From positions 1 through 64,000 of the forward strand of contig JAZDNO010000023.1 in NCBI GenBank assembly GCA_043799545.1: 64,000 nucleotides of DNA, written 5' to 3'. How positions within the stretch are numbered: position 1 is the first letter of the stretch; each line of letters starts with the position of its first letter. Source of the DNA: Methanobacteriota archaeon (GTDB taxonomy: Archaea > Thermoplasmatota > Thermoplasmata > SG8-5 > DAIRED01). The notes beneath the pieces were generated by a model, which had not been told where the DNA came from, did not search any database, and worked only from the letters and a program-made list of their open reading frames with translations. This document shows, piece by piece, positions 9,252 through 39,400 of the stretch. The translations under genes and the position numbers were made by a program.

Positions 9252-9284
9252 GTCGGAGGTGATGGCAAGCGCCGTCTTAAAATT

Positions 9285-9336: not shown

Positions 9337-9408
9337 GCGGCAGGAGGCACAAGCGGCCCCGAGCCGAACGCCCAGGGGGTCAAATCCCAGGGCGTGGATG
9401 GAACATGC

Positions 9409-19968: not shown

Positions 19969-20523
19969 GTGAGGCAATCTGTCCGTGCTCTCGTCGCGGT
20001 GGCGTTCGCCGCCACTTTACTATCCGCTTGCGTGAATGCCAGCGCCGCTTCCATTACCCCCACCGTGTCTCCGACGCGTGGGAGCATCAGCGCTGAGTAC
20101 GCCTTCGTAGTCAGGTACTCGGGGCAGCTGGCCGTCTCCAGCGCCACGGTCTACATCAACGGCGAGGCCCGCGCCATGGGTGAGGTAGACCCCGCGGACC
20201 AGAACGTCACGAACGGCAAGGACTACTCCCTTGTCACGAAGCTGCCCGAGGGCGCGAACGTTTACTATTTCCTGGTCGTCGACGCCAACGGGACAGAGTA
20301 CCGCAGCGCGGCCGGAACTGTGGTCGTGGACCCGCTCCTGGAATTCGGGCACTTCGACGTCGCGCTCGCGGTGCTGCTGTTCATGCTCCCTCTCGCATAC
20401 GCCATGCTCCTGATGAGGCGGGCCACGAAGGCGCTGGAGAAGGTGGCGAAAAGGCTGGAACCGAAGGATGAAAAACCCGAAGCTGGCATCAAGGAGCCAG
20501 AGGCTCCTCTGAATCGTGGCTGA
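19969..20523 (+). CDS. Small membrane-anchored surface protein (signal peptide, one Ig-like domain, C-terminal TM helix)
   Basis: GTG 19969 start gives MRQSVRALVAVAFAATLLSACVNASA; then a beta-rich domain and the TM segment VALAVLLFMLPLAYAMLL followed by RR. Confidence 0.7.
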   Translation: MRQSVRALVAVAFAATLLSACVNASAASITPTVSPTRGSISAEYAFVVRYSGQLAVSSATVYINGEARAMGEVDPADQNVTNGKDYSLVTKLPEGANVYYFLVVDANGTEYRSAAGTVVVDPLLEFGHFDVALAVLLFMLPLAYAMLLMRRATKALEKVAKRLEPKDEKPEAGIKEPEAPLNRG

Positions 20524-21598
20524 GCGCGGAGCCGCACGAAGCGCAGGCCAGGTCTTCGGGCACGCACCCGGCATGGTACGTCCGCCCGCACTCGCATTCG
20601 GCGAACTTCTGCGTTTTTACCAATTTGCTGCAGGCCGCGCAGCGCCTCCTCCTCCCCATCGGGAGCTCGTTGCCGACGCCGAGCACCTTGAACATTATCC
20701 CCCAGAACAGGAGTATCCAGGCCATGAAGATGAATATGCCCGCGTTGTTGTGGGTCCACGTCAGCGCCTCGGGCCCGTAGTTGACGCCGACGAGGACGAT
20801 TAGCGCCATCCTGATGACGTTGGCGTACCACGCCATCACCACTCCCACAAGGAGGAGGACTCCCACGCGCGCGTCGAACTTCTTGTATTCTATGGCGACG
20901 AATGCTGCGAAGGCGGAGATGAAAATCGTCACCGAATAAAGCCCGGTGCAGGAGAGCCCGATGGAAACGGCCTGCTGGAATCCGTCCGTGCCGATGTAGT
21001 TGATTATGTTGTGCCGGTTCGGGTCGAGCCAGTTGTCCACGCCGAAGATGGAGAGCAGCCCCGAGGTCGGGCGCGTGAGCAGCCATTCGGTCCATGGAGT
21101 ATCGGTGTTCGCTTCGGTGAGGGCTCCGTATTTCAAACTGTATATCGTCGTCGGGACGACCAGAATCGCGAAGAGGAATGCGAAGAACAGGAATGCGAAA
21201 TCTCGCTCGGCCGCGTATTTCGATGGGACGTAGTTGTATGCCAGCAGTATCGCGCCCAGGAGCAGGGCGACGTAGTCGTTGCTGCCGAGCTGGATGGCGC
21301 CCGCGGTCGCCAGGTTGTACGCGACGACGAGGATTATCGCCGCCACTCCGCCCACGGGCATCAGGTCGGCGAGCCTGCCGTTCAGGGTGACGGCGTGGAT
21401 GAGCCTTCCCGCCAGGTTGTCAGATGGTTTTTTCTCCTCCCGCTCGGAACCCCTGTAGCCCCACGAGAGGATCGCCAGCCCTATGGCGAAGAGCGTGGCG
21501 CCGAAGAGCCTGTTCAGGTGGCTCAGCAGAATCATCACGTCGAGCCCGGCGAAGAGGAAGACGAGCCCGACTAGCAGCTTCATGCGCCCGCCGCGCAT
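20489..21598 (-). CDS. artC: Archaeosortase (exosortase family, ArtC/PEF-CTERM type) with a C-terminal Cys/His zinc finger
   Basis: Polytopic membrane protein with catalytic motifs IGLSCTG (Cys), ANVIRM (Arg) and WTHNN (His). C-terminal CAAC...CECGRTYHAGC...CASC. GGAGG SD before ATG 21598. Confidence 0.85.
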   Translation of the reverse strand: MRGGRMKLLVGLVFLFAGLDVMILLSHLNRLFGATLFAIGLAILSWGYRGSEREEKKPSDNLAGRLIHAVTLNGRLADLMPVGGVAAIILVVAYNLATAGAIQLGSNDYVALLLGAILLAYNYVPSKYAAERDFAFLFFAFLFAILVVPTTIYSLKYGALTEANTDTPWTEWLLTRPTSGLLSIFGVDNWLDPNRHNIINYIGTDGFQQAVSIGLSCTGLYSVTIFISAFAAFVAIEYKKFDARVGVLLLVGVVMAWYANVIRMALIVLVGVNYGPEALTWTHNNAGIFIFMAWILLFWGIMFKVLGVGNELPMGRRRRCAACSKLVKTQKFAECECGRTYHAGCVPEDLACASCGSALSHDSEEPLAP

Positions 21599-22498: not shown

Positions 22499-22541
22499 GG
22501 GAATAAGATAGCGAATCGTCAATATTAAGGCTTTTGGAATC

Positions 22542-23339: not shown

Positions 23340-23477
23340 CTCCCTTTCCTCCTTGCTAGACGCATGGCATGCTCCGATGATATATTAGCTTTGCTTCCGG
23401 AAGGTCATCCGCGTAGTTTGGCTAGGCGCTTCTCCGGCAACCGTCCAGTCATCAAAGTCAAAATATGCGCCAATAAG

Positions 23478-23490
23478 AAACCTATAAATA
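23478..23490 (+). promoter_or_regulatory. BRE-TATA promoter of the surface-protein array
   Basis: aaacctataaata about 55 nt upstream of ATG 23544. Confidence 0.5.
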
Positions 23491-23543
23491 GCCATGGAAT
23501 CATTTTGTCTATTAGAGATTGAGCGGTTCGGCGGAGCATCCAA

Positions 23544-25397
23544 ATGGCGATGAAGAGTTTGGCGTTATTGGTCGGTATAGCAATCGCAGTGAGTTCATTA
23601 GGGTTGACGACATATGCTCGGACGTCGGAGACGAAACCGATGCATTGGCTAGCTCCTTATGGTTACGAAGGGATGATTTACTGGCCGGACGGCACAACAT
23701 TATTAGACGATGAAACGTCAGCGAATTTCAATATGATGATTTGTATTGACGACGATAACGACGGGATTGTATGGAATCCTGGTACAGGACTGCCAGAGGA
23801 TGAGCGGTACTACGTCTGGAGCGACGCTGGGATGAACGGATTTTGTGCAATCGATGATTCTAATATCCCTGGTGCAGCGTACTACGCCGAGTCATTTTGT
23901 GTCGGATTACCGGGAGGAGTTGGGTTAACCTTCAGAGTGTGGGTGAACGGCTCGAAGTTCACCTCAGTCGATTCGCAGGACGGATATTGCGGCAAGATGG
24001 GGGCGACGCCACAGGCGGACGGCACGTACTCGGTAGCGGACTCGACGTTTACGTTCCTACCCGGCGCTTCCATGTGGCACGACATGCAGATACCCGGACC
24101 ACCATTGAGTGACATTATTCCACCAATAGTGATTTCAACATATCCCCCGCAAGGAACTGATGTTATGGATCCGTATGTGATCATAAGAATCGATTTCAAT
24201 GAGGCAATCAATATCACCTCAGTCCTGTATGCAATAGAGCCAGAGCCAGACGACATAAGCGCGAGTTGGAGCAACAGCAATAAGACAATGTGGATAAACC
24301 ATTCGATATTTGATGGCGGGATATTTTACTGGGCGAACATCACTCAAGCCAAGGACAAGGCTGGCAATCCTTTGAATCCTACGCCTTATTCCTTGTTTTT
24401 CGCAGTGTTAGCGTATCCAAATTCCTGGTCATCACCGTTCGGGATGGAGGGATACGTTTATCTTCCGAATGGGACAACATTGCTACTGGGTGAAACCGCG
24501 TCGAATTTTGAAATGATATTTTGCGTCGATGCTGATAACGATGGACAGTATTATAATCCCAAGACCGGGGAGGGTGACGTTATTCACTGCTACAGCGATG
24601 AGGGAATCAATGGCTATCAGCCCTTGGATGATACATACATCGACACCAGCTTTTGGCAATATACGATGCAACCTGGATACCCAGGTGGATATAACAATAA
24701 ATATAAAATTTGGATAAATGGCTCAAAGCTGATTACCACAAACTCCCAGGACGGATGGTGCGGCAAGCCGGGGTCGATACCCTTGGCTGACGGAACATAT
24801 TCCCCAACGGACCAGATATTCACGTTCCCGCCCACGGGGGGTAGTGTATGGCAGAACTCTAAGATTCCCGGGCCACCGCAGCCAACATTCAAAGTTCCCG
24901 TCGTCGCCGGCTGGAACCTCATTTCGGTGCCACTAATCCCGTTGGTCACTGCGCTGCCAACCCCCCTAATGGACAACGACGGAGACACGCAATGGACAAG
25001 GGCTATGTGGTACGACCCGTGGGACACAGCCGACCATTGGAAACAATACAACAGCGTTTGGAACCCAGCCCTCAACGACCTTGAAGGTGTCGATGGTAAT
25101 ATTGGAGTCTGGCTGTATGTCACAACAGTCGGCGACGCTTACATCAACGTAACCGGGAGCGAGCCCACAAGCACGGCAATCCAGCTAAAAGCAGGCTGGA
25201 ATCAGGTAGGTTACCCATCCATCGCGCCGAGGACAGTTTCCGACACCTTCTGGGGAACTGGTGCAGACATAGTGGAGGTTTTCGATCCGATACAACCATA
25301 CATGACCAAAACCGTCTCCGCCTCCTATGTGATGGTCCCTGGAAAAGGGTACTGGGTGCATGTGAATACTGATACGGTCTGGGCGGTGACCTGGTAA
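23544..25397 (+). CDS. Secreted modular surface protein: two copies of domain X, an Ig-like (Big_5-like) domain and a C-terminal duplicated GWN domain
   Basis: Signal peptide; two ~145-aa PxGxEG...ICxDxDxDG...SDxGMNG...WVNGSK...SQDGYCG...IPGP units; C-terminal AGWNL...AGWNQVGYP...GKGYWVHV. Confidence 0.85.
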   Translation: MAMKSLALLVGIAIAVSSLGLTTYARTSETKPMHWLAPYGYEGMIYWPDGTTLLDDETSANFNMMICIDDDNDGIVWNPGTGLPEDERYYVWSDAGMNGFCAIDDSNIPGAAYYAESFCVGLPGGVGLTFRVWVNGSKFTSVDSQDGYCGKMGATPQADGTYSVADSTFTFLPGASMWHDMQIPGPPLSDIIPPIVISTYPPQGTDVMDPYVIIRIDFNEAINITSVLYAIEPEPDDISASWSNSNKTMWINHSIFDGGIFYWANITQAKDKAGNPLNPTPYSLFFAVLAYPNSWSSPFGMEGYVYLPNGTTLLLGETASNFEMIFCVDADNDGQYYNPKTGEGDVIHCYSDEGINGYQPLDDTYIDTSFWQYTMQPGYPGGYNNKYKIWINGSKLITTNSQDGWCGKPGSIPLADGTYSPTDQIFTFPPTGGSVWQNSKIPGPPQPTFKVPVVAGWNLISVPLIPLVTALPTPLMDNDGDTQWTRAMWYDPWDTADHWKQYNSVWNPALNDLEGVDGNIGVWLYVTTVGDAYINVTGSEPTSTAIQLKAGWNQVGYPSIAPRTVSDTFWGTGADIVEVFDPIQPYMTKTVSASYVMVPGKGYWVHVNTDTVWAVTW

Positions 25398-27175
25398 TGA
25401 ATGGCCTGGCGTTGTTGGTCGGCATGGCAATCGCGGCGAGTTGTATTGGAATAACCACATCGGCCACCACATCTGATATTGAATTAAAAGGATGGCCTGA
25501 GGAAGGCCAGTGGTTCCTTGAGGGAATGATTTACTGGACGGACGGTTCAACAATCCTGGATGCAGAAACTCAAGCGAATTTTAATATGATAATTTGCATT
25601 GACTATGATGGCGATGGCCTGTTTTGGAACCCAGGCACCGGATTACCTGTAGACGAGGCTGACTACTGTTTCAGTGACGCGAATATGAATGGCTACGGGG
25701 CGATAGACGACTCGAACATCCCGATGTGGGGATATTGGAGCCACACAATCCAAGTCGGACAGCCTGGTGGCGAGGGTAACATGTTCAAGGTCTGGGTGAA
25801 CGGCTCTAAGTTCACAACAATTGCATCGCAGGATGGATACTGCGGCAAGATGGGGGCGACGCCTCAGGCGGACGGCACGTATTCTGCGATAGACTCAACA
25901 TTTATTCTCGGACCAGATGGCATGCAGCTGTGGCACGACATGCAGATTCCCGGGCCCGCCGCAACGAAGACCTACGGCCCTGCCGCGCCGACCAACGTGC
26001 GAACGTGGCTCGTCGGCTCGCAAGCCCTGGCGACAGACGTCAACGTTTCGTGGAACGCCGTGGCTGGCGCGACCGGTTACAACATCTACCGCGGGACCGC
26101 GCCCTACTCGATTGACTTCGCAGCCCCGCTCAACGGGGGTGTGCCAATCGTGGCGCTTCAGTATGTCGACGCGGGAGCCATTGCAGGCGCTCCGCAGTAC
26201 TACTACTCTGTCAGGTCAGTCGCCGGGGGCGTCGAGAGCGCCACCAGCGAGACAGTTGGCAAGTACACGATGAGCCTGCTGGCCGGCTACAACGCCTTCG
26301 GCTGCCCGCTCGCCCTCTTCCCGGAGAGGGTGGACTACCAGGGCCACCTGCTCTGCGACTGGCGCCTGATAAGGGCCACGAGCGCGGACAGGATTCCGAA
26401 CGCAACGACCATCTTCACCTATACCTACGCCACCCAATCATGGAAGGGCAGGGCGGCGACAACCCCCGATGCGATACCGCACACGGTAATCAACCCGCAT
26501 GATGACGGGCTCCTGATGTATATGTCGCAGGCTGACAGCTACACCTGGGTCGGGTGGCCGGCGGAGCAGATAAGGACCGCCAACTTCTCCGGGGCGACGC
26601 CGCTGTCAGCGCCTGGCAACTTCCATGTAGAGTGGTCCGGAGCAGACATCCGGTTGACTTGGGATGCAGTCGTCGGCGCCAACCGCTACGAAGTCTACAC
26701 CGCGACCAGCAGGTCTCTGATGAATTACAACTTCGCATCCCCTGCGTACAGCGGAACCAATCTGTTCTGGGTGGACGCAGGAGCCAATACGACGGTCGGA
26801 CAGAAGTATTACATCGTGGTGGCCGTCGACGGCGATGGCGACAAGGGTGACAGCTCTTACGCAGCGGGGAAATGCACGAGGAGTCTGGGGGCCGGGTACA
26901 ACGCGATAACCACGCCGTTCGAGTCTTTCAGGGGCCACACGGATACTCAAGGCCACCAGCTTTGCGACTGGACGCTTATCGACGGCGGCTCGCCGTTCAG
27001 CTACAGGCGCATCCCGAACGCGACAGTGGCATTCACCTTCGATGTTTCGGGGCAGCGATGGGTGGGAAGGTCGTCGTCGACGCCGGAATTCGTAAGCCAT
27101 CGGATATTGGAAGTGCAGGGCATGGGAATGATGGTTTACATGGGAGCCGCAGGCACGTATACCTGGGTCGGTTGA
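25397..27175 (+). CDS. Secreted modular surface protein: domain X plus two FN3/GYN-domain units
   Basis: Start overlaps the previous stop (TAATG). Signal peptide, domain X, then APTNV...SWNAVAGATGYNIYRG FN3-like units each followed by an AGYN(A) beta domain. Confidence 0.85.
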   Translation: MNGLALLVGMAIAASCIGITTSATTSDIELKGWPEEGQWFLEGMIYWTDGSTILDAETQANFNMIICIDYDGDGLFWNPGTGLPVDEADYCFSDANMNGYGAIDDSNIPMWGYWSHTIQVGQPGGEGNMFKVWVNGSKFTTIASQDGYCGKMGATPQADGTYSAIDSTFILGPDGMQLWHDMQIPGPAATKTYGPAAPTNVRTWLVGSQALATDVNVSWNAVAGATGYNIYRGTAPYSIDFAAPLNGGVPIVALQYVDAGAIAGAPQYYYSVRSVAGGVESATSETVGKYTMSLLAGYNAFGCPLALFPERVDYQGHLLCDWRLIRATSADRIPNATTIFTYTYATQSWKGRAATTPDAIPHTVINPHDDGLLMYMSQADSYTWVGWPAEQIRTANFSGATPLSAPGNFHVEWSGADIRLTWDAVVGANRYEVYTATSRSLMNYNFASPAYSGTNLFWVDAGANTTVGQKYYIVVAVDGDGDKGDSSYAAGKCTRSLGAGYNAITTPFESFRGHTDTQGHQLCDWTLIDGGSPFSYRRIPNATVAFTFDVSGQRWVGRSSSTPEFVSHRILEVQGMGMMVYMGAAGTYTWVG

Positions 27176-27184
27176 GAGGGAACG

Positions 27185-28576
27185 ATGCAAGCCAAAGGAA
27201 ATCGAAAGGCACCCGCAATCGTCCTAGCGGGAATGCTGCTGTCGGGCGCGTTCTGCATGCTGGCATACGCGCAACCGTCAGGGACAAACTCAACACTAGT
27301 GGTCACCAATCCTTTTCTTTTGGAAGGCTATGTGTATCATTGGAATGGCACGCTGCTGACGGGCGTGAGTTCATCATTATTCATGATGATGATATGCGTG
27401 GACGAGGACGAAGACAATCTGTATTGGCCAGAGGATTCAACTGATTATAACCACGTTTACAGCGATGAGGGCATGAACGGGCTTCCCCCGATCGACGACA
27501 GCTACATCGAGTCGAACGGTTTCTATACGATAACCCTGCCAACAGGTGGTCCAGGCGGATATGTAAAAAACTTCAAAATCTGGGTGAACGGGTCGGCATT
27601 TCCAGATTATGTATCGCAAGACGGCTACTGCACAACTCCGGGGGTTATCCCCCAACCGGATGGCAGATATCTCCCGGCGCAGCAGATATTCACATTCCCA
27701 GCAAGCGGAGCCTCGTTTTCTCTAGATATCCAGGTTCCAGTGGGTTGGTTTCATTATCCCTCCACGGCCACCGGGCCAGTAGGTTCGTCTGCGTCCGCCA
27801 ATTTGGTAATCACATACGAACCGGATTGCGGATGCTTCGGAGACACTTTACTATATTATTCTAATGACAAGAATAGCACTTGGTATTACATCGGAACGGA
27901 AGATGATATGGTTAATGAGGACGGTCTGTTCGCGTGGACCGCTCCCGACAGCGGCGAATACTGGTGGTACGCTGGAAACGGTTACGGCGCAATAGCAGAC
28001 GACCCTCCGGGACCTGGAACGCCCGCCGAGGCTGGCCCTTACGTCATAACCCTCCCGCCGCCATCATTCAATATTCCCGTTATCGCTGGATGGAACCTGG
28101 TCTCGACGCCCCTCGTGCCGGGGAACGCGACGATGCCGGACCCGCTTCTTGACTACGATGGAGATACACAATGGACGCGAGCCCTATGGTACGACCCTTG
28201 GGACTCGGCAGACCACTGGAAGCAGTATAATGTCGCGTGGAACTCATCGATGAACGACCTGAAGAGCGTCGACAACAAGATGTGCATCTGGCTGTACGTC
28301 ACGACGGTCGGGAACGGTTACATCAAAGTCACCGGAAGCCAGCCCAGCAGCACGGGAATCCCGCTGAAGGCCGGCTGGAACCTAGTGGGCTACCCATCCA
28401 TCACGCCGAGGACCGCTTCCGACACCTTCTGGGGGACAGGCGCGGACATCGTGGAGGTCTTCGACCCGGCGCAGCCGTACATGACCAAGGCCGTCGGCCC
28501 GACCTACCTGATGACCCCCGGAAAAGGGTACTGGGTCCACGTGAATGCCGACACCGTTTGGACGGTCGATTGGTGA
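27185..28576 (+). CDS. Secreted modular surface protein: domain X, a small beta domain and a C-terminal GWN domain
   Basis: Signal peptide, divergent domain X, and a C-terminal ~165 aa closely similar to that of 23544-25397. Confidence 0.85.
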   Translation: MQAKGNRKAPAIVLAGMLLSGAFCMLAYAQPSGTNSTLVVTNPFLLEGYVYHWNGTLLTGVSSSLFMMMICVDEDEDNLYWPEDSTDYNHVYSDEGMNGLPPIDDSYIESNGFYTITLPTGGPGGYVKNFKIWVNGSAFPDYVSQDGYCTTPGVIPQPDGRYLPAQQIFTFPASGASFSLDIQVPVGWFHYPSTATGPVGSSASANLVITYEPDCGCFGDTLLYYSNDKNSTWYYIGTEDDMVNEDGLFAWTAPDSGEYWWYAGNGYGAIADDPPGPGTPAEAGPYVITLPPPSFNIPVIAGWNLVSTPLVPGNATMPDPLLDYDGDTQWTRALWYDPWDSADHWKQYNVAWNSSMNDLKSVDNKMCIWLYVTTVGNGYIKVTGSQPSSTGIPLKAGWNLVGYPSITPRTASDTFWGTGADIVEVFDPAQPYMTKAVGPTYLMTPGKGYWVHVNADTVWTVDW

Positions 28577-28624
28577 CGGCGCAACCTTTTCCTACCGCAA
28601 CGCCATTCCCCTCGCGGTCTTCCC

Positions 28625-29488
28625 ATGAAAGTCATCGCAGGAACCTCATCGCAAAAGCTCGCATCCAGCCTCTCCACGGAACTCAAGGCCCCCGTGGCCA
28701 ACGCGGAGATAAAGCGCTTCCCCGACGACGAGTGCTACGTGCGCATCCTCGACGACATGAGGGGCAAGGTCGTCGTTGTCGTTCAAAACACGTACCCGGA
28801 TAACAACCTCGCCGAGCACCTGATTCTGCAGGACGCCGCGAGGCACTCGGGCGCTAAGAGCGTGATATCCGTGATACCTTACTTCGGCTACGCCCGGCAG
28901 GACAAGCTCTTCCGGTCGGGGGAGGCGGTAAGCGCGCGCCTGATGGCCCGCGTGGTCGAGGGGAACGCTGACGCCACCATTTTAATAGACATACATAATA
29001 TAACAACGTTAGAAGAATACCGCAAGCCCGTCGCAAACGCTTCGGCGATACCGTCCCTCGCCCGATTTTTGGCATCGAAGGAGAGCATAGACGCGGTCCT
29101 CTCGCCGGACAAGGGCTCGCTCGCGAGGGCGGGCGAGGCCGCGAGGCTGATGAACTGCAAGTTCGACCACCTTGAAAAGACGCGCATCGACGGCGCGACA
29201 GTCGTCGTAAAGCCGAAGGAGCTTGACGTCGCAGGGAAATCCGTCGCAATCGTGGACGACATCATCGCGACGGGAGGGACCATCGCCGCGGCCACGGCGC
29301 AGCTGAGACAGTGCGGGGCGAAACGGATTGTCACGGCATGCACGCACGGACTTTTCACGGGCGGAGGCCTGCAGAGGCTGCAGGGCGTTTGCGATGCGGT
29401 GTACTCTTCGGATACGCTAGAAAACGAGTCGACGGCATATTCTCCCGCGCACGAAGTGGCGAGGGCTATCAAATCTATATCTATATAA
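28625..29488 (+). CDS. prs: Ribose-phosphate pyrophosphokinase
   Basis: KRFPDDECYVRI, IPYFGYARQD, SPDKG, VDDIIATGGT and CTHGLF motifs. Confidence 0.96.
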   Translation: MKVIAGTSSQKLASSLSTELKAPVANAEIKRFPDDECYVRILDDMRGKVVVVVQNTYPDNNLAEHLILQDAARHSGAKSVISVIPYFGYARQDKLFRSGEAVSARLMARVVEGNADATILIDIHNITTLEEYRKPVANASAIPSLARFLASKESIDAVLSPDKGSLARAGEAARLMNCKFDHLEKTRIDGATVVVKPKELDVAGKSVAIVDDIIATGGTIAAATAQLRQCGAKRIVTACTHGLFTGGGLQRLQGVCDAVYSSDTLENESTAYSPAHEVARAIKSISI

Positions 29489-29660
29489 AACGCCCCCCCT
29501 GCCGTTCGAGGGATGTACCAAATCCTATTTAAGTAGTCTCGGGCTTTTCATGAACAATGTGTGCAAGGGCTCTACCTAAATCGTTATATAGGCGCGTGGG
29601 ATTACACGGCCGGGGGCTAATAGAGCCGTTTGTACCGATAGTTGGATAGGAGGAAAAAGA

Positions 29661-32600
29661 ATGAATACTAGGACAATAAAGGGAGCAAGCCTGATTGTGG
29701 TGGTCGCTATGGTGGCCATGGTTTTCGCTGGAGTGCAGATTCAGGCGGCGCCCGCCGGAGCCTACACGAGGTACGGCGACGGCGGTGCCAACGTCGCACC
29801 TGCTAGCACAACCATCTCGGCTTGGATAGATGGAGTTGAGTACGGGTTGAACACATCGTCCGTAACCGGAACCTACACGATTGAAACCGCTGGTGACGAT
29901 ATATTCGACACGACAATGAAAATCGGCGGCCTGAACGGGGAGACAGTCCGTTACGTGCTTGGAACCGAAAGGCTGATGACCGGCCAGTTGAGCCGGTTTG
30001 CGACCCAGAACGCGGCATTTACCGCCTGGGGCATCACCCTCGGCGCCCTCACTGAGGCAGCGGCCGGAAGCCAGGCGAGGCTGTTGAAGATAAACAACGT
30101 GTCTTCGCAGTCCACGTTGGAATCCGCAGCCGGAGTACCAAACGATTACATAGTCATCTGGAACCCCGCAGGGGCGACAATCGACATCACGACATACTCA
30201 ATCGCCGTCGGAGCCGCAGCTGCGCAGCCGATAATCGCCGGCGACATCTGGACGTACAGGATGTACGCCTGGACGACCAACCCGGTCCCCGTGAGCGGCT
30301 TCATCGCCATCAACATGGCGAAGTGGGGCGGGCTCGCCACAGCCGGCAACTCGATAAAGCTCATCCACACGGCGACTGGATTCATCGTCGACCGCGTCGA
30401 ATACGGCAACATCGCAGACCCCCAGAACACGATAATGACGAACGCGACTGCACCCGGTTCGGCCCAGCAGATCCGCAGGACCGCCGCCGGCGCAGACACG
30501 AACTCGTGCAGCGTAGACTTCTCCGCACCGGTGGCCCAGTGGCTGCCACAGGATTTGATTGCACCGACGGTCAATGCGGGCTCTGACGAGACGAGGAACG
30601 CCTTGTTCTCAACGACGGCCGGCAGGGTAACACCTGCGAGCATTACCGACACTGGCGGTTCAGGAGTATCCGCCGTCGTCTCCTGGACTTCCGTCCCGGC
30701 GGGAGTCGTATTCGGAACCCCTGCTTCGCTGACGACTACGATAAGCGCACCTGCTGGCAACGGAGTAACATACACGATAAGGCTGACTGGATATGACAAT
30801 GCTGGCAACAGCGCGTGGGACGAATTCACGCTGCTCTGGGACACGGTCGGTCCGACAGTGAACGCGGGCTCCGACGAGACGAGGAACGCCGTGTTCTCAT
30901 CGACGGCCGGCAGGGTAACACCTGCGAGCGCGTCTGCGACGGGAGCCGCAATCACGACCTACGCCTGGACATCTGCCCCGGCTGGCGTGATATTCGGAAC
31001 CCCGGCAGCGTTGACGACGACAATCTCCGCCCCGGCGGGCGAAGTGACGTACACGGTCAGGCTGACGGTCACGGACGCAGCCACCAACGCGGTGTTCGAC
31101 GAATTCACGCTGCTCTGGGACACGGTCGGTCCGACAGTGAACGCGGGCTCTGACGAGACAAAGGACGCGATATTCACCACGACCGTGCCTGCGGACAGGA
31201 CGGTCATCTCAAGCGCATCGGCAACTGGCGCTCCAATCTCGACCTACGCCTGGACAGCAGCCCCGGCGGGAGTCGTATTCGGAACCCCGGCAGCGCTGAC
31301 GACAACGATAACCGCAGCAGTCGGCGTTTACACGGTCACACTGACGGTCACTGACGCTGCAGGCAACGTTGTCGCGGACTCGTTCCAGCTTACATGGAAC
31401 CCGCCTGCGACCGCATGGGCGACCGCGACCGGACCGACCGGAACCGGAGCAGTCGGAATCACAATAACGTACACGTACTCAGTGGCCCCGGCACCGACCT
31501 CGGTCGACCTCTACTACACCCTGGATACGGTTTCGCCATGGACATGGGTCTGGGCGGTCAACGACGCGCCAGTCGACGGCAGCATAGCTTATGTACTCCC
31601 GGGCAACGGGGTCTACAGCTTCTACGCGTCCGCAGTCGGCGGCGGCTCAGTCGAGCCGAACCCGCCGGCGCCAACGGATGCGCCGGAAATCGGAACGTAC
31701 ACTGTTGGCAGCTCCAAGCTATTCGGGCCATCAGCACCGTTGAACGTCAGGATATGGCTTGTGGGCTCGCAAGCATTGGCGACGGCCGTCAACATCTCGT
31801 GGAACGCCGTGGCCGGCGCGACAGGGTACAACATCTACCGCGGAACCACGCCCTACTCGATAGACTTCGGAACGCCGCTCAACGGCGGAGTGCCGATAGT
31901 GGCGCTCCAATACGTTGACGCCGGAGCCATCGCAGGCTCGGCACAGTACTACTACTCGGTCAGGGCAATCGCCGGAGGCGTCGAGAGTGCAAGCAGCGCA
32001 ACCGTAGGCAAGTACACGATGCCCCTTCAGATCAACTACAACGTCTTCGGCATACCGCTGGAACTATTCCCGGAGAGGACTGACTACCTGGGGCACCTCA
32101 TGTGCGACTGGAGGCTAATCAGGGCGACGAGCGTGGACAGGGTACCGAACGCGACGACCATCTTCACCTTCACCTACGCGACGCAGTCCTGGAAGTCCAG
32201 GTCTTCCACCACACCTGACGCAATCGCTCACGTGGCAATCAACCCGCAGGAGGACGGCATTGAGATATTCATGCAAGTGGCCGACAGCTACACGTGGCTG
32301 GGAACCCCCGCAGAACAGGTACGCAAGGCCAACTTCACTGGCGTGACCCCGCTGGCGGCACCCGCGAACTTCAAGGTACGCTGGGCCGGAGTATTGGGCG
32401 GCAGCAACAACGACGTGAGGCTGACATGGGATGCGGTACCCGGCGCGGACCACTACCACGTCTACACATCGACGACAAGGTCACTGGCCAACTTCAACTT
32501 CGTGGCAGCCCCCGCATATTCCGGAGTCGCATTGACCTGGGACGACGCGGGAGCCAACACGACTGTCGGAGCAAAGTACTACATCGTCGTCGCGGTTGAC

Positions 32601-32939
32601 GGCGATGGGGACCTGGGAGACTCCGCATACGCGGTCGGCAAATACACGCGCAGCCTCCTGAAGAACTACAACGTCTTCACGACGCCCTTCGAAGTCTTCA
32701 GGGGCAGGGCAGACTACTTGGGACACCAGCTCTGCGACTGGAGGCTCGTCAGGGCCACGAGCCAGGACAGGATACCGCTCTCCACGACCATCTTCACCTT
32801 CACGTACGCAACGCAGTCGTGGAAGTCCAGGTCGTCCACAACACCGGATGCCATCGCTCACGTCCAAATACCGACAATGGGCTCGGGAGTCGAAGTATTC
32901 TTGAGCGACCCCAGCACATACACGTGGCTGAGCACCTAA
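29661..32939 (+). CDS. Large secreted surface (S-layer-like) protein: lamin-tail-like domain, 3 PKD-like repeats, two FN3/GYN units
   Basis: AGGAGG SD, signal peptide, LTD-like LKINNV...IVIWNP...VDRVEYG, three PTVNAGSDET repeats, and a C-terminal ~400 aa paralogous to 25397-27175. Confidence 0.85.
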   Translation: MNTRTIKGASLIVVVAMVAMVFAGVQIQAAPAGAYTRYGDGGANVAPASTTISAWIDGVEYGLNTSSVTGTYTIETAGDDIFDTTMKIGGLNGETVRYVLGTERLMTGQLSRFATQNAAFTAWGITLGALTEAAAGSQARLLKINNVSSQSTLESAAGVPNDYIVIWNPAGATIDITTYSIAVGAAAAQPIIAGDIWTYRMYAWTTNPVPVSGFIAINMAKWGGLATAGNSIKLIHTATGFIVDRVEYGNIADPQNTIMTNATAPGSAQQIRRTAAGADTNSCSVDFSAPVAQWLPQDLIAPTVNAGSDETRNALFSTTAGRVTPASITDTGGSGVSAVVSWTSVPAGVVFGTPASLTTTISAPAGNGVTYTIRLTGYDNAGNSAWDEFTLLWDTVGPTVNAGSDETRNAVFSSTAGRVTPASASATGAAITTYAWTSAPAGVIFGTPAALTTTISAPAGEVTYTVRLTVTDAATNAVFDEFTLLWDTVGPTVNAGSDETKDAIFTTTVPADRTVISSASATGAPISTYAWTAAPAGVVFGTPAALTTTITAAVGVYTVTLTVTDAAGNVVADSFQLTWNPPATAWATATGPTGTGAVGITITYTYSVAPAPTSVDLYYTLDTVSPWTWVWAVNDAPVDGSIAYVLPGNGVYSFYASAVGGGSVEPNPPAPTDAPEIGTYTVGSSKLFGPSAPLNVRIWLVGSQALATAVNISWNAVAGATGYNIYRGTTPYSIDFGTPLNGGVPIVALQYVDAGAIAGSAQYYYSVRAIAGGVESASSATVGKYTMPLQINYNVFGIPLELFPERTDYLGHLMCDWRLIRATSVDRVPNATTIFTFTYATQSWKSRSSTTPDAIAHVAINPQEDGIEIFMQVADSYTWLGTPAEQVRKANFTGVTPLAAPANFKVRWAGVLGGSNNDVRLTWDAVPGADHYHVYTSTTRSLANFNFVAAPAYSGVALTWDDAGANTTVGAKYYIVVAVDGDGDLGDSAYAVGKYTRSLLKNYNVFTTPFEVFRGRADYLGHQLCDWRLVRATSQDRIPLSTTIFTFTYATQSWKSRSSTTPDAIAHVQIPTMGSGVEVFLSDPSTYTWLST
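30565..31400 (+). repeat. Three tandem ~93-aa PKD-like repeats containing a 53-bp exact duplication
   Basis: gacgaattcacgctgctctgggacacggtcggtccgacagtgaacgcgggctc occurs at 30819-30871 and 31098-31150 (period 279 nt). Confidence 0.9.
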
Positions 32940-32948
32940 GCGTAAAAG

Positions 32949-32972
32949 GGGTGGGCCCGAACGGGCCCACCC
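32949..32972 (+). terminator. Perfect GC hairpin after 29661-32939
   Basis: gggtgggcccg-aa-cgggcccaccc, 10 nt after the stop codon. Confidence 0.6.
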
Positions 32973-33069
32973 TCCTTATATATTTAAAGTCCTAGGAATA
33001 AAGGCATATGGACATGACAAAATATCTAGAAGGGAGGCAATAGGAGAAAATAAGATAGGAGATGAAAAA

Positions 33070-36000
33070 ATGAAAACAAGAGTAAAGGTATTGGCAACTG
33101 TAATGGCGTTAGGGATGTTGCTGAGTGTTTTTGGAGCACTCTCCGCTCGCGCAACGTGGCCGACCCCGTATGGTTTTGAGGGTATGGTATACCTCACAGA
33201 CGGCTCGACACTCCTTGACGGGGAAACAGTAGCGAGCTTCGACATAATAATCTGCGTGGACCAGGATTCGGACTTAACTGTTTGGAACCCGGGCACTGGA
33301 TTGCCAGCAGACGAGGCAGTGAACTGTTTCAGTGACGCAGGAATGAATGGCTATGTTCCGTGGATAGACGACTCGAACATGCCTGGGGCGGCGTATTACG
33401 CCACCACATTCCAGGTTGGACAGCCTGGGAGCGTCGGCGACACGTTCCGCGTGTGGGTCAACGGCTCGAAGTTCGGGTCCGTCGTCTCGCAGGACGGATA
33501 CGTCGGAGCCCTCGGGGCGACGCCTCAGGGAGACGGAACATACGCAGCGATAGACTCGACGTTCACATTCGGAGCTGGCGCGAGCATGTGGTTCGACTTC
33601 CAGATTCCGGGACCAGGGTTTGCACCAGACCCGACAGCGACTGTATCGAGCCTGGCCCCAGTGTCACCATCGGCTGACAACACGCCCGCCGTAACCTACA
33701 CCCACGCAAACAACCCGGCATCCGTGACCGTTTACGCATGGGACACCGCAGGACCGGGTCCATGGGTCGCAGTAGGGACCGATGGGACAGTAACTGGACC
33801 GCCGGACACGTTCGATACGAACGTAATGGCCGCCGGAACCTATCTGTTCACGGCCATACCGACTGGCGGAAACCCGACTGACCCGGTTCCAACGGTTGTT
33901 GGAGACTCCGAATTCGGACCGTACACCATCTTACCCGCGGGCGACGTAGTCCCGCCGGACACAACAATCGTCAGCGTACTGCCGGCCTTCGTCGGTCAGT
34001 GCCCCAACACGGTTACAATCACCGTGTTCGGTGACGACACGGGAACGGGCGGTTCAAACATCCTGTCCGCACAGTACCGCATCGACAGGAACGACGACGG
34101 CGACTTCAACGACGCATTGCCTGCATGGTACGGTCTGGACGAGGCCTGGCACGCTGTGGACGACACAGCCACGGCAGCAGGGCCGACAAGGACATTCACC
34201 GAGGCCATAGACCTCCACAACTGCACGATAACCGCCGGAACGTTCAACATCGAAGCCCGCGCGGCTGACGTTGCAGGTTACGACGCAACACCGGCATCGA
34301 CGAACTTTGCCATCGCTGACTCAACATCGCCGGTCAATGCAAGGATCGCACCGACCCCGACCGACGGCAACATTAGAGCACCTGGCGACACCGTAATAAG
34401 GATAACGGCCACAGACTTCAGGATGACAACAGCGCTGATAACTGTGACAGCACCCACCGCTTCGGTTGTCAATGCCCCAATGACACAGATAAACTGGGCA
34501 AAGGGCTCGAACATCGTCACCTTCGAATACACGATAACTGAGAACACCGATGGCGCAGTAACATGGTCCGTAGACACAGACGACGGCCCCAACCCAGCCA
34601 CGACGACCGCCGGTTTCTACACAGTCCAGAGCGGAATGCTCGGACCGAACGCGCCCTACAGCATCGCTGGCAGGGTCTTCCAGTACAACGGTGCGGCAGG
34701 CCTCTACAACCCATTGATACAGGACAACGCCAATGTCATAGTGCAGACTGTGAACTTTACTGGCGATCTGAAAACGTACGGCCCGCAGAACACTGACGCG
34801 GCAGGCAACTTCTTGTTCACCGTGCAGCCGGTCGACCAGCTCGTTTGGGGCAACCCGATATTCGTGCAGGCGACCAACGCTGGCGGAATTGCATGGATGG
34901 GCTGGAACCAGTCGACAATCGTGCTGAACAGCGCGAGCTCGTTCTGCAACGTCACATACGGCGTCCCATACAACCTGACGGTCACGGCGGTCGCAGACTG
35001 GACGCTCGGTGAAATCATCGGCGTCAACGCAGTCGCGCCCGGCACGGCAGTCCAGGTAAGGGTTGAAGTCTATGACAACCGCTCGCTCATGGCAACCGGT
35101 TACTACGGCAACCTGAGAATCGACACTAACGACACGAACGCTGCGGTCCTAGTCTGGGGCGGCGCTGACCCGAACAACATAGCGTTGGACGGAGTCGGCG
35201 GTGGATTCACAGACGGATTCTACGACAACACAGTGCAGCTCTGGACCCCGAGGCCATTCGGCTGGGGAGTCTGGGTCAACGACACAACCGGCGGCGACAA
35301 CTCGCTGGTAGACGCGTCGGCGGCATTCCTGCTGCCATACGCGGCAGTCAGCGTCACTGACAACACGCACATACGCATAGTCTCCGGCGGAATAATGTGG
35401 ACCCTGTCGGTAGGATGGAACCTCGTTTCGCTCACCAAAGGCTACACCTTGTCCGCGTTCAGCGCATTCGAGGCAACCCAGTACATCGAGGACGCCAGGG
35501 TCAGGTATGGCCTTGGAGCATCCGCGATTGTAATGGCGAGCCTGACGAACGGTCAGCCATCGACAATCAGCTACGACACATACACCTACGGACCCGGTGG
35601 ATCGGACTTCTTGATCAACAACGACATGGCCTACTGGGTCTACGTCGATGTCGCCATACCGATGGTCTACATACCCTGCAACGACATCACACTGCCCAAC
35701 GACGCGACCGTCGGCATAGTGGCCAACGTCAACACCGTGACACTGCTCGCTGGCTGGACGATGGTCAGCACCGGAATGAACGAGGCAAGCAACGTCTTCG
35801 GTGTGGGCGTCAACGCTCCGCTGCTGTCTGATATCGATGGCAACCAGGGCAACGGCGCGGCCGGCTCCAGATTCTGGACCGGTGGCAGCTGGGTTGCGGG
35901 CGTACACTATGCGTGGTACGACCAGCCCGGTGGAATCGCAGACTCTAACACGGGAGTCGACTACCTCACTGGAGGCGTCGTGCTTTCGTCTGCGGCAGCT

Positions 36001-36165
36001 TGGAACCCGGCAGCACAGACCTACCACACATGCGTCTACGATGCGTGGTTCGGACTGTGGGATTCCGGTCTCGGGTACAACAACTACGTCGACCAGGTGT
36101 ACTACGCGAGCGGATTCTGGGTGTACTCTGCAGGTGGAGCAATAACGTACAGCGTGATCGCTTAA
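33070..36165 (+). CDS. Large secreted surface (S-layer-like) protein: domain X, Ig-like modules, divergent C-terminal GWN domain
   Basis: AGGAG SD, signal peptide, PYGFEG domain X, C-terminal WTLSVGWNLVS...YWVYV...LLAGWTMVS...GFWVYS; strong preference for C-ending codons. Confidence 0.85.
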   Translation: MKTRVKVLATVMALGMLLSVFGALSARATWPTPYGFEGMVYLTDGSTLLDGETVASFDIIICVDQDSDLTVWNPGTGLPADEAVNCFSDAGMNGYVPWIDDSNMPGAAYYATTFQVGQPGSVGDTFRVWVNGSKFGSVVSQDGYVGALGATPQGDGTYAAIDSTFTFGAGASMWFDFQIPGPGFAPDPTATVSSLAPVSPSADNTPAVTYTHANNPASVTVYAWDTAGPGPWVAVGTDGTVTGPPDTFDTNVMAAGTYLFTAIPTGGNPTDPVPTVVGDSEFGPYTILPAGDVVPPDTTIVSVLPAFVGQCPNTVTITVFGDDTGTGGSNILSAQYRIDRNDDGDFNDALPAWYGLDEAWHAVDDTATAAGPTRTFTEAIDLHNCTITAGTFNIEARAADVAGYDATPASTNFAIADSTSPVNARIAPTPTDGNIRAPGDTVIRITATDFRMTTALITVTAPTASVVNAPMTQINWAKGSNIVTFEYTITENTDGAVTWSVDTDDGPNPATTTAGFYTVQSGMLGPNAPYSIAGRVFQYNGAAGLYNPLIQDNANVIVQTVNFTGDLKTYGPQNTDAAGNFLFTVQPVDQLVWGNPIFVQATNAGGIAWMGWNQSTIVLNSASSFCNVTYGVPYNLTVTAVADWTLGEIIGVNAVAPGTAVQVRVEVYDNRSLMATGYYGNLRIDTNDTNAAVLVWGGADPNNIALDGVGGGFTDGFYDNTVQLWTPRPFGWGVWVNDTTGGDNSLVDASAAFLLPYAAVSVTDNTHIRIVSGGIMWTLSVGWNLVSLTKGYTLSAFSAFEATQYIEDARVRYGLGASAIVMASLTNGQPSTISYDTYTYGPGGSDFLINNDMAYWVYVDVAIPMVYIPCNDITLPNDATVGIVANVNTVTLLAGWTMVSTGMNEASNVFGVGVNAPLLSDIDGNQGNGAAGSRFWTGGSWVAGVHYAWYDQPGGIADSNTGVDYLTGGVVLSSAAAWNPAAQTYHTCVYDAWFGLWDSGLGYNNYVDQVYYASGFWVYSAGGAITYSVIA

Positions 36166-36181: not shown

Positions 36182-36203
36182 ATCCGCGCCGAAAGGCGCG
36201 GAT
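36182..36203 (+). terminator. Hairpin with GAAA tetraloop after 33070-36165
   Basis: atccgcgcc-gaaa-ggcgcggat (9-bp stem) followed by T-rich sequence. Confidence 0.6.
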
Positions 36204-36465
36204 AAAACCTTTATACATTTCTTATTTCTTCTGGCATAGTGAAAACGATGCGCAAGCTTTTTTAAGGGATGAGCATAAAGTTAATATAGAGAAAGTGCAA
36301 TTCTGAGTTAGACTAGTGGACATTAACATCCGGAACGGTCCGCCAGTGTGTCGTAGGTAGGGAGTGTCATGGAGTGTCGTGAGAAAGGGGCTGTGAGCCC
36401 CGCCTTAGCCAGCATGAGCCTTACAGTTGTTGTACCAGTGACCGTCATCGACGGAGGTGCGTTAC

Positions 36466-39400
36466 ATGTCTAAGCGCGAGAGCGGGATAGAGTGTCCGGT
36501 TTGCGGAGCATCCAATCCAACTGGCGATTCCGAGTGCAAGGAGTGCGGTTTCATATTCGAGGCTGACCGGGCTGTGGCGAAGCCTCCTGTGGCAGCAGCC
36601 GCTCCGAAAGGAGTAGTAGCTCCCTCCTCGACGCGCGAGTGCCCCAGCTGCATGGCCATAATCGAGGCATCCGACGCGGAGTGCCCCATCTGCGGCGAGA
36701 AGTTAGTGCCAACCTTCGTCAAGGAGACTGGCCAGGAGATATCGTGTAAATCCTGCGGGGCATTGCTCGATTCGTCGTTGACGGTCTGCCCGATATGCGG
36801 GGAAGGCCTGGTAGAGGTCAGGGAGGAGCCGGCGCCGGAAGCCCAGGCCGACGAGTTCACATGCAGCAACTGCGGGTCGATACTCTCGTTCGGTATGACC
36901 GAGTGCCCGGTCTGCGGCGTGAGGTTCGACCAGCCGTTGACCCCCCCAATGCCGGTCTCGGCGGTTCCAGCAGAACCTGTCGAGATACCCATGGAAACGC
37001 CCGAACCCGCTGTAGCCAAGGACGAATCATGGGACCTTGGGTCTGTGGGCGGCCAGGCTGTTGAACCTGCGGATGCCCCATACGAACCGGAACAGAGGGA
37101 GGAACCAGCCGCTCCGGGGATAGATGCAATTCCAGAGGAGCCGATGCAGGTCGCAGAAGAGCCGCCAATGCCAGTTCCATCAGCTCCGCCCGAGGCGGTG
37201 CCGGCGAAGGTCAAGCTGGCGGACGACGAGTTCGCATGCCCGTCATGCTCCGTTCCGGTCAAGCTTGGAACGGACCGCTGCGAATCGTGCTGGGCGGACG
37301 TGGCCGGATACGTCAGGTGCCCGTCATGCGGGACGGCGTCTGGACCCGGGGTGGAGGTCTGTCCGGACTGTTTCGCCAAGCTGCCATTGGCCGCGGCGCC
37401 GACGGCGATGGCGCCTGAACCGGAACTCGAGGTTCCCGAGGATAAAGAAGAGCCCTCGCCCAAGGAGGGCGACGCCGATTGCCCGTCGTGCGGAAGCCCG
37501 GTCCTCAAGGAAGACGTGATGTGCGCCGACTGCGGAATGATACTCATAAATGAGGAGGAGCCGCCGGTCAAGAAGCGCGAGCCGAGGAAGAAGCCCATCC
37601 AGCAGCTCGGAGTATGGGAGAAGCGCGCTGTGATAATCGTGATTGCGCTCCTCATGAGCTCCGCCCTGATGCCATTCATATTCAGCCTGCCGCAGGTCGA
37701 GCGCGACCGGATAATATTCGACGGGTCATTCGACGACTGGGGCCAAGTTAGGGTCAACCACGACGACGTGGGAGCGCTGCCGAGCGAGGTGGACATTACT
37801 GCCTACCAGGTGATATCCGACGGCAGGAACATCTACTTCTCGGAGACCGTGCTGGGCAATATCTTCAGCAGCGTCCGCGGGGAGACGATGAGGGTATTCG
37901 CCGATACAGACCGGAATCCGGCCACTGGCTATTCCATACGCGGCACGGGCGCCGACTACATGGTCCGGGTCTACGGATGGGGCGGCGTCGTCAGGAGCGC
38001 TTCCTGCCTCAGGTTCGCCACCGCCACAAACCAGAACGACTTCACAGCTTTCCAGAGCCACGCCACGGCGTACCCGTACGCCTCGGGAAACCAAACGGAG
38101 GTCCGCGTGCTCCTTGCAGACATGGGGATGAACGAAGAGACACGGGCGAACATAGTTTTCTACATGGGCAACTCGCTCGGCCAGCATGACTTCTCCGACC
38201 TGGTCGTGTCGAACATCGGTGGGGTTCTCAACGTCAGGCAGGTCCCTTCCGCGAGCGTTCTCGCGGACGGCTGGATACCTGTCGGAACCTCGACTGAGGT
38301 GATGACCTTCGAGATGGCGGCTGCGGGCCAAGACATCTCATTAACGGGATTGGAGACGCACGGGCTCGTCCAGAACCGGACCCTTCCGCTAATGATCGCC
38401 GATGGGAATACCGTGCTCGCCAGCGTCATAGCCAACCCGACCGCTGCCCAAGCAGGCGATGTGGTCGAGGCCTTGTTCGCCGCAGCGGACTTCACGCTGC
38501 TGGATGGTTCCACGGCCGTCACGGGCGGAGCCGCCAGGGCGTATGCCGGCCAACCTGCAGCCGGGGTGACGATAGACGGCGCCTTCGCAGATTGGCGTAA
38601 TGAAGCGATCTCCGACGACCCGACAACCGACGTCATGGACCGGAGCTCTACGAATTACATCACTTCTGATAACATCAACATCCTGGGGTACGCCAGCGGG
38701 ACCGCCGCCAGCGCCCAGGGGCAGAGCCTCAACGTTTACGTGAACGTTGCAGGCCATGCGCTTGGCGGAACCGACGTGCCGGTCGAGGAATCGGCTCACC
38801 TGGTGCCCCCGAGCAGCACTAGGTCCCAGGCTACACCGTCTGCAAGCCAGGCGCAATCGAACAATACCCGTTCGGAACAAGCGCAAACGCCAGCCGGAAC
38901 AAGGCAGGCGGCCGCTGAGCGCCCGGAGCTGGCGCCGCCGGCGCCGAAGGCGAAGACGGGCGAGGACGCAATCCTCGTGCTGCTGGACACGGACAACCGT
39001 TCGGCGACTGGATACCTGGCCGGCGGGCTCGGCGCGGACATGCTCCTAGAGGTAAAGGGGCGCGAGGGAAAGGTGACTTCGACGATTCTGTACGGTTTCT
39101 CCGGCGCGGACCAGAGGATTTACTCCTGGAATGCGGTGGGAAACGGCACCGCCGCCTGCACGGGCTCGGAGATTGAGGTGGGAGTACTGCTTTCCGATAT
39201 CGGAATAGCTGCCTACGCTGAACTTGCAGTCCTGATTCATGTGGTCGACTGGAAGGAGGACAAGGACGCTGCGAACGTGAGCTGGGACGCAGCTGGCAAC
39301 GCGTTAGGGACCACTAGGGCACCCGCTCCGCCCAACCAGATATACGGTTGGGTAAAACACGCGAACAACTCGATAGCCAACGGCACTACATTGGCGGTGA

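Follow-up and report, generated by a model that had tools for sequence, protein, structure and literature searches.

Cargo of the type IX secretion system (T9SS) is attached at the cell surface through a C-terminal domain. In the dockerin–cohesin and SLH systems, one C-terminal module docks many exoenzymes and structural proteins to the envelope or to a scaffold; dockerins are small calcium-binding helical repeats, and SLH domains are helical. The degradation of detrital protein by exported peptidases is the presumed way of life of sediment and groundwater Thermoplasmata. Here, we analysed a 64,000-nucleotide stretch of DNA (the window; contig C7, positions 1-64000) from a Thermoplasmata genome (G000; 2.06 Mb, 31 contigs, 94% complete). 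It carries five genes for putative surface proteins, designated A to E, which are assembled from shared modules that we call X, b, F and G. We found that G, the module closing A and C, is a generic, widespread and unnamed C-terminal module that is not specific to this array. The view that A–E are adhesin-like modular surface proteins held by a generic C-terminal retention module has, in our judgement, about an even chance of being right. An earlier note on this DNA had given positions for five open reading frames (ORFs), and all five were recovered there, on the plus strand:

23544..25397, + strand: gene A, 617 aa, X-Big_5-X-G; signal-like N-terminus, X at nt 23628-24101, Big_5 at 24111-24401, X at 24408-24881, twin-GWN domain G at 24882-25394.
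25397..27175, + strand: gene B, 592 aa, X-F-F; signal-like N-terminus, X at nt 25505-25960, F1 at 25964-26596, F2 at 26597-27172.
27185..28576, + strand: gene C, 463 aa, X-b-G; signal-like N-terminus, X at nt 27305-27742, Ig-like b at 27743-28060, G at 28061-28573.
29661..32939, + strand: gene D, 1092 aa, (LTD-like)-PKD x3-b-F-F; signal-like N-terminus, LTD-like part at nt 30081-30404 (sub-threshold), three PKD-like domains at 30591-31418, b at 31419-31718, F1 at 31719-32318, F2 at 32319-32936.
33070..36165, + strand: gene E, 1031 aa, X, a b-like module, about 450 aa without a family, and G'; signal-like N-terminus, X at nt 33148-33627, b-like module at 33628-33999, beta-rich centre without a family at 34000-35349, divergent twin-GWN domain G' at about 35389-36144.

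G spans residues 447-617 of A and 293-463 of C, and the two copies are 71% identical. It is a 170-residue all-beta domain with two homologous halves, each of which opens with GWN(L/M)(V/I)(S/G)xP. An alignment of 22 G paralogues showed conserved G10/W11/N12 and G105/W106/N107 triplets, and the invariant aromatic residues are W11, W53, W77, W106, Y140, Y157 and W158. The N-half matched the C-half with an hhalign probability of 97.5% (E = 6e-12), which bears out the earlier description of an internally duplicated GWN domain. The AF2 model resolved two beta subdomains (pLDDT 94.4).

To locate the modules in the rest of the genome, hidden Markov models (HMMs) were built from the window modules and run on all six-frame ORFs. 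G was detected in 25 ORFs and one fragment, spread over more than 20 contigs. It ended 21 of the 25 ORFs with a tail of at most 1 aa, and two more were cut by contig ends inside the domain. The exceptions were one ORF with an 88-aa tail and one with G near the N-terminus of the frame. The paralogous G domains are 28-71% identical to the G of C, and their passengers are unrelated. A Pfam scan of the 20 carriers outside the window revealed peptidase domains in seven (C25 twice, C1, C11+M14, S8, and M28 twice) and NosD/beta-helix domains in six, two of which also carry a peptidase. Cleaved_Adhesin, FG-GAP, LTD and PKD/DUF11 occurred once each, and five of the 20 had no family. Most G carriers show an N-terminal hydrophobic segment, as judged by hydropathy. 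The array had been proposed to form a combinatorial S-layer or filament system; that it is a self-contained one is not supported, as G-bearing ORFs lie on more than 20 contigs and include seven peptidase-bearing proteins.

The distribution of G extends well beyond this genome. The G profile matched 12,577 of 1.84 billion cluster representatives at E ≤ 1e-3, 4,641 at E ≤ 1e-10 and 924 at E ≤ 1e-30; among the 148 best representatives, 133 carry G within 5 aa of the C-terminus. G was present in 21/21 other genomes of the order and in 119/401 of the class, with whole families lacking it. In a scan of species representatives, the matches were mostly Thermoplasmata and metagenome-assembled genomes labelled Methanomassiliicoccales, with a few Anaerolineae, Chloroflexota and Acidobacteriota bins. 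Genome G021 carries G in two extremely large open frames on contig C11 (8661 and 8676 aa; G at 82955-83449 and 108868-109362).

The earlier note had allowed that the modules might be known, functionally unrelated Pfam families. For G and X this is not so: neither has a Pfam match even at E ≤ 10, nor an NCBIfam match, and A–E as whole proteins gave no NCBIfam match at E ≤ 0.01. Foldseek found no PDB match for G at E ≤ 1e-3, and the G profile had no match among PDB sequences at E ≤ 1. In a wide VIA structure search, the best score was Z = 5.3 over 65 residues (RCK_C domains), which is no more than common beta-sandwich arrangements give, and the matches listed include no T9SS domain. Searching the ESM Atlas by features returned only unnamed clusters for G. 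There, G-like predicted structures occur on PAD_porph, M14, CARDB, sialidase and fn3 proteins, and their hosts are Thermoplasmatota, Chloroflexota, Verrucomicrobiota, Cloacimonadota and Fidelibacterota. No publication on the G domain appeared among the titles and abstract openings of the literature searched, from which the motif strings GWNLIS, GWNLVS, GWNLVG and GWNLIG are absent as well.

The mix-and-match architecture proposed for the five proteins was confirmed by BLASTP and the local HMMs. X occupies residues 29-186 and 289-446 of A, 37-188 of B, 41-186 of C and 27-186 of E; D has no X. The copies are pairwise 38-62% identical (BLASTP E-values of 1e-29 to 1e-75) and scored 226-281 bits with the X HMM. 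In the all-versus-all comparison, A and C were 47% identical over 316 aa (E = 4e-95), A and B 62% over 195 aa, A and E 44% over 292 aa, and B and E 51% over 204 aa. B and D matched through the F pair region (67% over 410 aa, 568 bits). B and D each carry two copies of F, with 37% identity between F1 and F2, and each F combines a fibronectin-III-like (FN3) part with a 'GYN' unit of about 100 aa. The FN3 part at D707-781 matches PDB 3mpc (Fn3-like; E = 8.7e-7). Module b lies at C193-288 and D587-682 (34% identity over 98 aa, E = 2e-9).

The other Ig-like domains could be assigned to Pfam. Big_5 of A passes the cut-off (30 bits vs 23.6), as do the three K319L-like PKD domains of D (43.2-49.7 bits vs 27). 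The LTD domain (PF00932) at D141-248 covers profile positions 7-107 of 109 and reached 15.7 bits against a gathering cut-off of 34.3; the D orthologue P0161 (25.6 bits) and the D-like protein of G021 (24.1) likewise scored below it. Thus, of the LTD-PKD3-F-F layout first proposed for D, the PKD triplet and the F pair stand, LTD is sub-threshold, and a b module has to be added. PDB sequence searches yielded only an FN3 for D and no match for E.

X is predicted to be a beta-sandwich (pLDDT 92). Its structure matches are all weak (carbohydrate-binding, CBM20, transthyretin-like and CnaB-like sandwiches, VIA Z ≤ 6.7; best Foldseek match, the CBM20 region of CGTase, E = 3e-3), and these scores, too, fall within the range of common beta-sandwich arrangements. 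X carries a nearly invariant acidic loop of the DxDxDG type. Its near-invariant aspartates are D41, D43, D45 and D76; D77 and D131 show no variation. Both X and F are rare. X occurs just six times in this genome, once outside the window (contig C12), and F only in B and D. X was found in 3/401 class genomes: G000, and G033 and G021 of another family in the same order. A word-index homologue search with X gave one foreign match, the E orthologue P0007; with F, it gave one full-length foreign match, P0161, and the other matches span the FN3 part only.

The C-termini of E, P0007 and the E-like protein of G021 matched the G profile with an hhalign probability of 94.7% (E = 5.6e-8), so that E ends in a divergent G (G'). 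Eight GYN units aligned with the N-half of G over 84 columns end to end, at a probability of 34% (E = 4e-4) and with their (G)(W/Y)N motifs in register; controls with X or reversed GYN gave 0.2-1.2%. GYN and G also share one Atlas structure neighbour, a CARDB/Chloroflexota cluster (432 aa, 75 members). A relationship between the GYN unit of F and G is therefore suggestive. To the eye, the C-termini of the D-like proteins in genomes G111 and G021 look GWN-like, an impression that single-sequence hhalign comparisons with G and GYN did not support (probabilities of ≤ 17%, not significant). A and C (G) and E (G') end in the same kind of unit; for B and D, the kinship of GYN is only suggestive.

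X heads were found with G, G', FN3-GYN pairs or a PEF-CTERM-like membrane anchor. The features that bear on PEF-CTERM-type anchoring are as follows:

Contig C12 of G000, 94366-98022 (locus L100): X-bearing paralogue, a 1218-aa frame.
36457..54723, + strand: giant ORF, 6088 aa, with at least 26 DUF11 stretches.
20489..21598, - strand: exosortase/archaeosortase-family gene, closest to ArtC (59.8 bits vs a cut-off of 100).

The C12 paralogue shares 53% identity with E over 326 aa, across the X-b segment, and ends in a PEF-CTERM-like transmembrane (TM) tail (16.4 bits vs a cut-off of 23). Because homologous X-b passengers end in a membrane anchor, in G or in G', G occupies the position of an anchor. 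This choice-of-anchor pattern is our best internal argument for G as a putative anchor. The C12 protein contains cytoplasmic TNGLTNG-type repeats, a TM segment, X and two b-like modules, and it appears to be anchored at both ends. Its outer domain corresponds to residues 371-941 of the giant ORF, at 29% identity. The giant itself carries double zinc ribbons at its N-terminus, presumably on the cytoplasmic side, as well as several hydrophobic segments and DUF7619/DUF7927/DUF7507 signatures; at its other end, a PEF-CTERM-like TM segment comes with an RRRGKRG tail (19 bits vs a cut-off of 23). In A–E, a Kyte–Doolittle scan detected no C-terminal hydrophobic segment or PEF motif. The ArtC-like gene lies 2 kb upstream of the array, beside epimerase/dehydratase and polysaccharide-synthesis genes; its product is likely to process the PEF-CTERM-like proteins and not A–E.

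The same scan found one N-terminal hydrophobic segment and no C-terminal TM segment in each of the five proteins. A second flagged window in A (451-469) falls inside the G domain. This is in line with the original description of secreted-type proteins with signal-like N-termini and without a TM or sortase-type tail. A–E are acidic (pI 4.05-4.66) and contain 0.64-1.30 N-glycosylation sequons per 100 aa, compared with a genome median of 0.25. In D and E, Thr, Ser, Ala, Gly and Val make up 49-53% of the residues. From these features we infer that A–E are exported, and they are probably glycosylated.

The following features of the array region bear on its transcription:

28625..29488, + strand: prs, ribose-phosphate diphosphokinase (NF002095, 297 bits), a housekeeping gene.
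32948..32973, + strand: hairpin of 11 pairs (9 G-C) directly 3' of the D stop, followed by a T/A-rich tract; terminator-like.
36182..36203, + strand: 9-pair hairpin closed by a GAAA loop, 17 nt 3' of the E stop, followed by a T-rich tract.

The array was first described as five paralogous genes in a row. All five are present, although they are not contiguous: prs separates C from D. The stop of A and the start of B overlap by 1 nt, and C starts 9 nt past the B stop. D is preceded by GGAGG at 29649-29653, 7 nt ahead of its ATG, a motif found ahead of 108 of 1315 genome ORFs (8.2%). E has AGGAG at 33057-33061, 8 nt ahead of its ATG. The strong Shine–Dalgarno sites and the hairpins ascribed to the last two genes were thus both recovered. 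The E hairpin was read straight from the sequence, as the hairpin scan did not list it on the plus strand. Terminator-like sites between 22500 and 37000 were no more common than in shuffled sequences (10 vs 10.7), and only the individual hairpins after D and after E stand out. Since D and E have their own upstream regions, Shine–Dalgarno sites and hairpins, the array divides into A-B-C(-prs), D, and E as three separate transcription units. The A-B-C operon is translationally coupled and lineage-specific. The G+C content of the A–C segment (22000-28000) is 0.51-0.57, as compared with about 0.60 in the rest of the genome, and the third-position G+C (GC3) of A (0.57) and C (0.65) is also lower. 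Either a more recent arrival of the segment or relaxed codon selection could account for these values.

Relatives of the array mix the same modules differently. In G033, a 2638-aa protein reads X..F-F-X..Big_5..DUF11..G (L116, G033:C28:114000-125500, ORF 1464-9377, minus strand), a 1771-aa protein reads X-x-X-Big_5-PKD without G, and a 933-aa protein reads X..G. Module mixing is thus a property of the family. The 2638-aa protein resembles a fusion of the B-type with the C/E-type proteins, which are encoded by adjacent separate genes in the window, and it points to fission or fusion of genes within this family.

Synteny divides the region into two parts. G111, from the same genus, has prs (78%) followed by the D orthologue (63%). 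G021 has prs (50%), a D-like gene, an E-like gene without X (29% over E204-1029) and a homologue of the giant ORF (35%). On these grounds, prs-D-E-giant is an old cluster, conserved within the taxonomic order, and A-B-C is a local addition. Clustering in relatives, one of the expectations placed on the array, therefore holds in part: for prs-D in G111 and for prs-D-like-E-like-giant in G021. The E core was found in 9/22 genomes of the order, including 5/7 high-quality ones, and fast evolution or incomplete bins could hide others; it was not found in the same-genus G111 (84% complete). A second E paralogue without X lies at G000:C22:90544-93721 on the minus strand, in overlapping frames of 898 and 352 aa (49% and 68% identical to E). 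This split copy is a frameshifted pseudogene or an assembly error.

Codon usage did not bear out the expression hierarchy that had been proposed, with biased codons in D and E as major subunits and A–C as minor ones. Against a reference set of EF1A, EF2 and thermosome genes, which lie at percentiles 97-99, the codon adaptation index (CAI) of D fell at the 74th percentile and that of E at the 56th, and codon adaptation is unremarkable. CAI nearly equals GC3 in this genome (r 0.96). A principal component analysis of codon usage was rejected as an expression axis: PC1 is GC3, and PC2 splits low-GC island genes from spurious antisense ORFs.

The rest of the window encodes further large or putatively exported proteins. 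Directly 3' of the giant ORF, two plus-strand genes at 54728-55534 (268 aa, fn3) and 55541-58177 (878 aa, CarboxypepD_reg) encode proteins with a signal-like N-terminus, a C-terminal TM segment and a poly-Arg/Lys tail, without a PEF motif match. At the left edge, an ORF of more than 2447 aa (3-7346, plus strand, 5' end open) combines a subtilase domain (S8) with Ig-like domains and, towards its C-terminus, two PKD domains; it lacks both G and a TM tail, and its GC3 is only 0.49 with a CAI at the 9th percentile. The minus-strand gene at 11993-14641 encodes a KaiC-like ATPase of 882 aa, in which two KaiC stretches and DUF7504 were recognised.

With the above results in hand, we propose the following explanation. 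A–E would be exported all-beta cell-surface proteins made by shuffling a few lineage-restricted modules. X is probably the N-terminal, distal head, with a putative calcium-dependent ligand-binding role, and the Ig-like modules (Big_5, b and PKD) may serve as spacers between head and tail. The tail would be a GWN-type unit, which A and C have as canonical G, E as a divergent G, and B and D as FN3+GYN pairs. Once the protein has been exported by Sec and its signal peptide cleaved, G could bind a common envelope component (a putative glycan, lipoglycan or surface protein) non-covalently, and would thereby keep the protein on the wall-less cell, on the principle known from dockerins, from SLH domains and from the T9SS C-terminal domain. 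We infer both the surface retention by G and the ligand binding by X. The region would thus place a conserved prs-D-E-giant envelope cluster side by side with a lineage-specific A-B-C operon. Of the non-covalent docking through the C-terminus first suggested for the array, a conserved beta module in the anchor position stands. All genomes searched in the order carry G, so that C-terminal docking, if real, would be a genome-wide mechanism and not a property of the array.

Several observations weigh against this explanation. The signal peptides and TM segments of A–E were judged by hydropathy alone. Immediate neighbours with a C-terminal TM anchor occurred at 1/23 G genes as against about 11% expected, so that a receptor beside the G genes is not evident; this comparison took ORFs of at least 150 aa and a crude heuristic for a C-terminal TM segment with a basic tail. 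The GYN–G relation falls short of statistical support (hhalign 34%). In the 2638-aa protein of G033, the F-F pair is internal. Finally, in some bacterial clusters a predicted G-like fold lies upstream of a T9SS tail (Por_Secre_tail), where G does not itself form the terminal anchor and might instead bind a ligand.

The last two points lead to a different function, in which G, G' and GYN would be substrate- or particle-binding modules, similar to carbohydrate-binding modules (CBMs), that direct exoenzymes and adhesins to environmental polymers or other cells and not to the surface of the producer. The many invariant aromatic residues of G and the occurrence of G-like folds on sialidase, M14, CARDB and PAD_porph proteins would suit such a role. 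On the other hand, one module shared by enzymes of very different substrates fits a common receptor better, and neither the extreme C-terminal position in 133/148 representatives nor the X paralogue with a membrane anchor in the place of G is what a binding module would lead one to expect. We think this function doubtful, though worth keeping in mind. The strict C-terminal position would equally suit a C-terminal export or sorting signal, removed or modified by a putative T9SS-like machinery, and the cargo mirrors that of the Porphyromonas T9SS (C25 gingipain-like, M14 and Cleaved_Adhesin domains, with PAD_porph in an Atlas cluster). Nevertheless, Sec-type hydrophobic segments stand at the N-terminus of the carriers examined, the analysis came upon no candidate machinery, there was no match to Por_Secre_tail or to an NCBIfam sorting domain, and 170 residues in two folded subdomains are large for a signal. 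A sorting signal is, in our view, very unlikely.

The remaining alternatives concern the role of D and E. They could be, one or both, the major subunits of an S-layer or filament that assembles through the C-terminal G/F modules, with A–C as accessory proteins. D and E form separate units with good Shine–Dalgarno sites, the GGAGG type preceding just 8.2% of ORFs, and with strong hairpins. They are acidic proteins of about 1000 aa, rich in T/S/A/G/V and in sequons, without a TM segment, and the prs-D-E-giant synteny extends across two families of the order. However, their CAI percentiles (74th and 56th vs 97-99) do not point to major proteins, an argument that is weak given that CAI tracks GC3. 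The E core is limited to 9/22 genomes of the order and was not found in G111, the second E paralogue on C22 is split over two frames, X is confined to 3/401 genomes, and G is common to peptidases instead of being array-specific. We rate a major-subunit role of D and E as rather improbable. A broader proposal combines a coat with docking. Here, G would supply the docking side of a widespread and so far undescribed system for surface display in wall-less archaea and some bacteria, in which one envelope receptor serves the whole exoproteome (peptidases, beta-helix proteins and X-headed adhesins); D, E and the giant would form the scaffold (an S-layer-like coat with divergent GWN units), to which A–C and the 20-odd G-tagged enzymes dock. 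This proposal is speculative, and we consider it unlikely as it stands. A complex prediction for X and G scored 0.19 against a mark of 0.32, which is evidence neither way.

The retention of A–E by a generic C-terminal module, if correct, would make G a testable handle on how a wall-less cell keeps its exported enzymes and adhesins. The scale is considerable, as G ends about 25 putatively exported proteins per genome and is found in more than 12,000 metagenomic protein clusters. The locus adds the choice-of-anchor evidence, in which X is combined with G, G', FN3-GYN or a PEF-CTERM anchor, and it adds the divergent G on E-type proteins. It also nominates prs-D-E-giant as candidate core envelope components.

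Comparison with described systems shows partial likeness in each case. As in the two-component S-layers of Sulfolobales (SlaA/SlaB), D and E are large, acidic, glycoprotein-like chains without an anchor, for which a partner fixed in the membrane would be required; the membrane-anchored giant lies beside D-E, with conserved synteny. They differ in that there is no sequence or structure relation, and the conservation of E is patchy. Fibrillar adhesins share with A, C and E an N-terminal non-Ig head, Ig-like spacers and a conserved C-terminal module, and the giant has a DUF11 stalk. A–E, in contrast, are short (1-3 spacers), their head and anchor belong to no described family, and binding is a prediction here. 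PEF-CTERM with archaeosortase C (TIGR03024, TIGR03762) represents an alternative C-terminal anchoring in the same genome, on the C12 protein and the giant, whereas A–E lack a C-terminal TM segment and PEF motif; the PEF-CTERM and ArtC matches of this genome lie below the curated cut-offs.

The closest parallels are with the modules named at the outset. Dockerins (PF00404) and SLH domains (PF00395) follow the same logic as that proposed for G, yet no Pfam match was found for G, G' or F except weak FN3-type ones. G also differs from dockerins and SLH domains in being all-beta, and no cohesin-like receptor was identified. The T9SS C-terminal domain of Bacteroidota cargo (PF18962/TIGR04183; gingipains, PPAD, CPG70) resembles G in being all-beta, in its extreme C-terminal position and in its presence on many unrelated secreted proteins per genome. 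The cargo is alike as well, with C25, M14 and Cleaved_Adhesin in this genome and PAD_porph in an Atlas cluster. In contrast, G has no PF18962/TIGR04183 match and no T9SS domain among its structure matches, is twice as long and internally duplicated, and resides in a one-membrane archaeon; in some bacteria, G-like domains even co-occur with a real T9SS tail. The display of many proteins by a shared receptor, if true, would give archaea a functional equivalent of the cellulosome or of the way in which T9SS cargo is attached.

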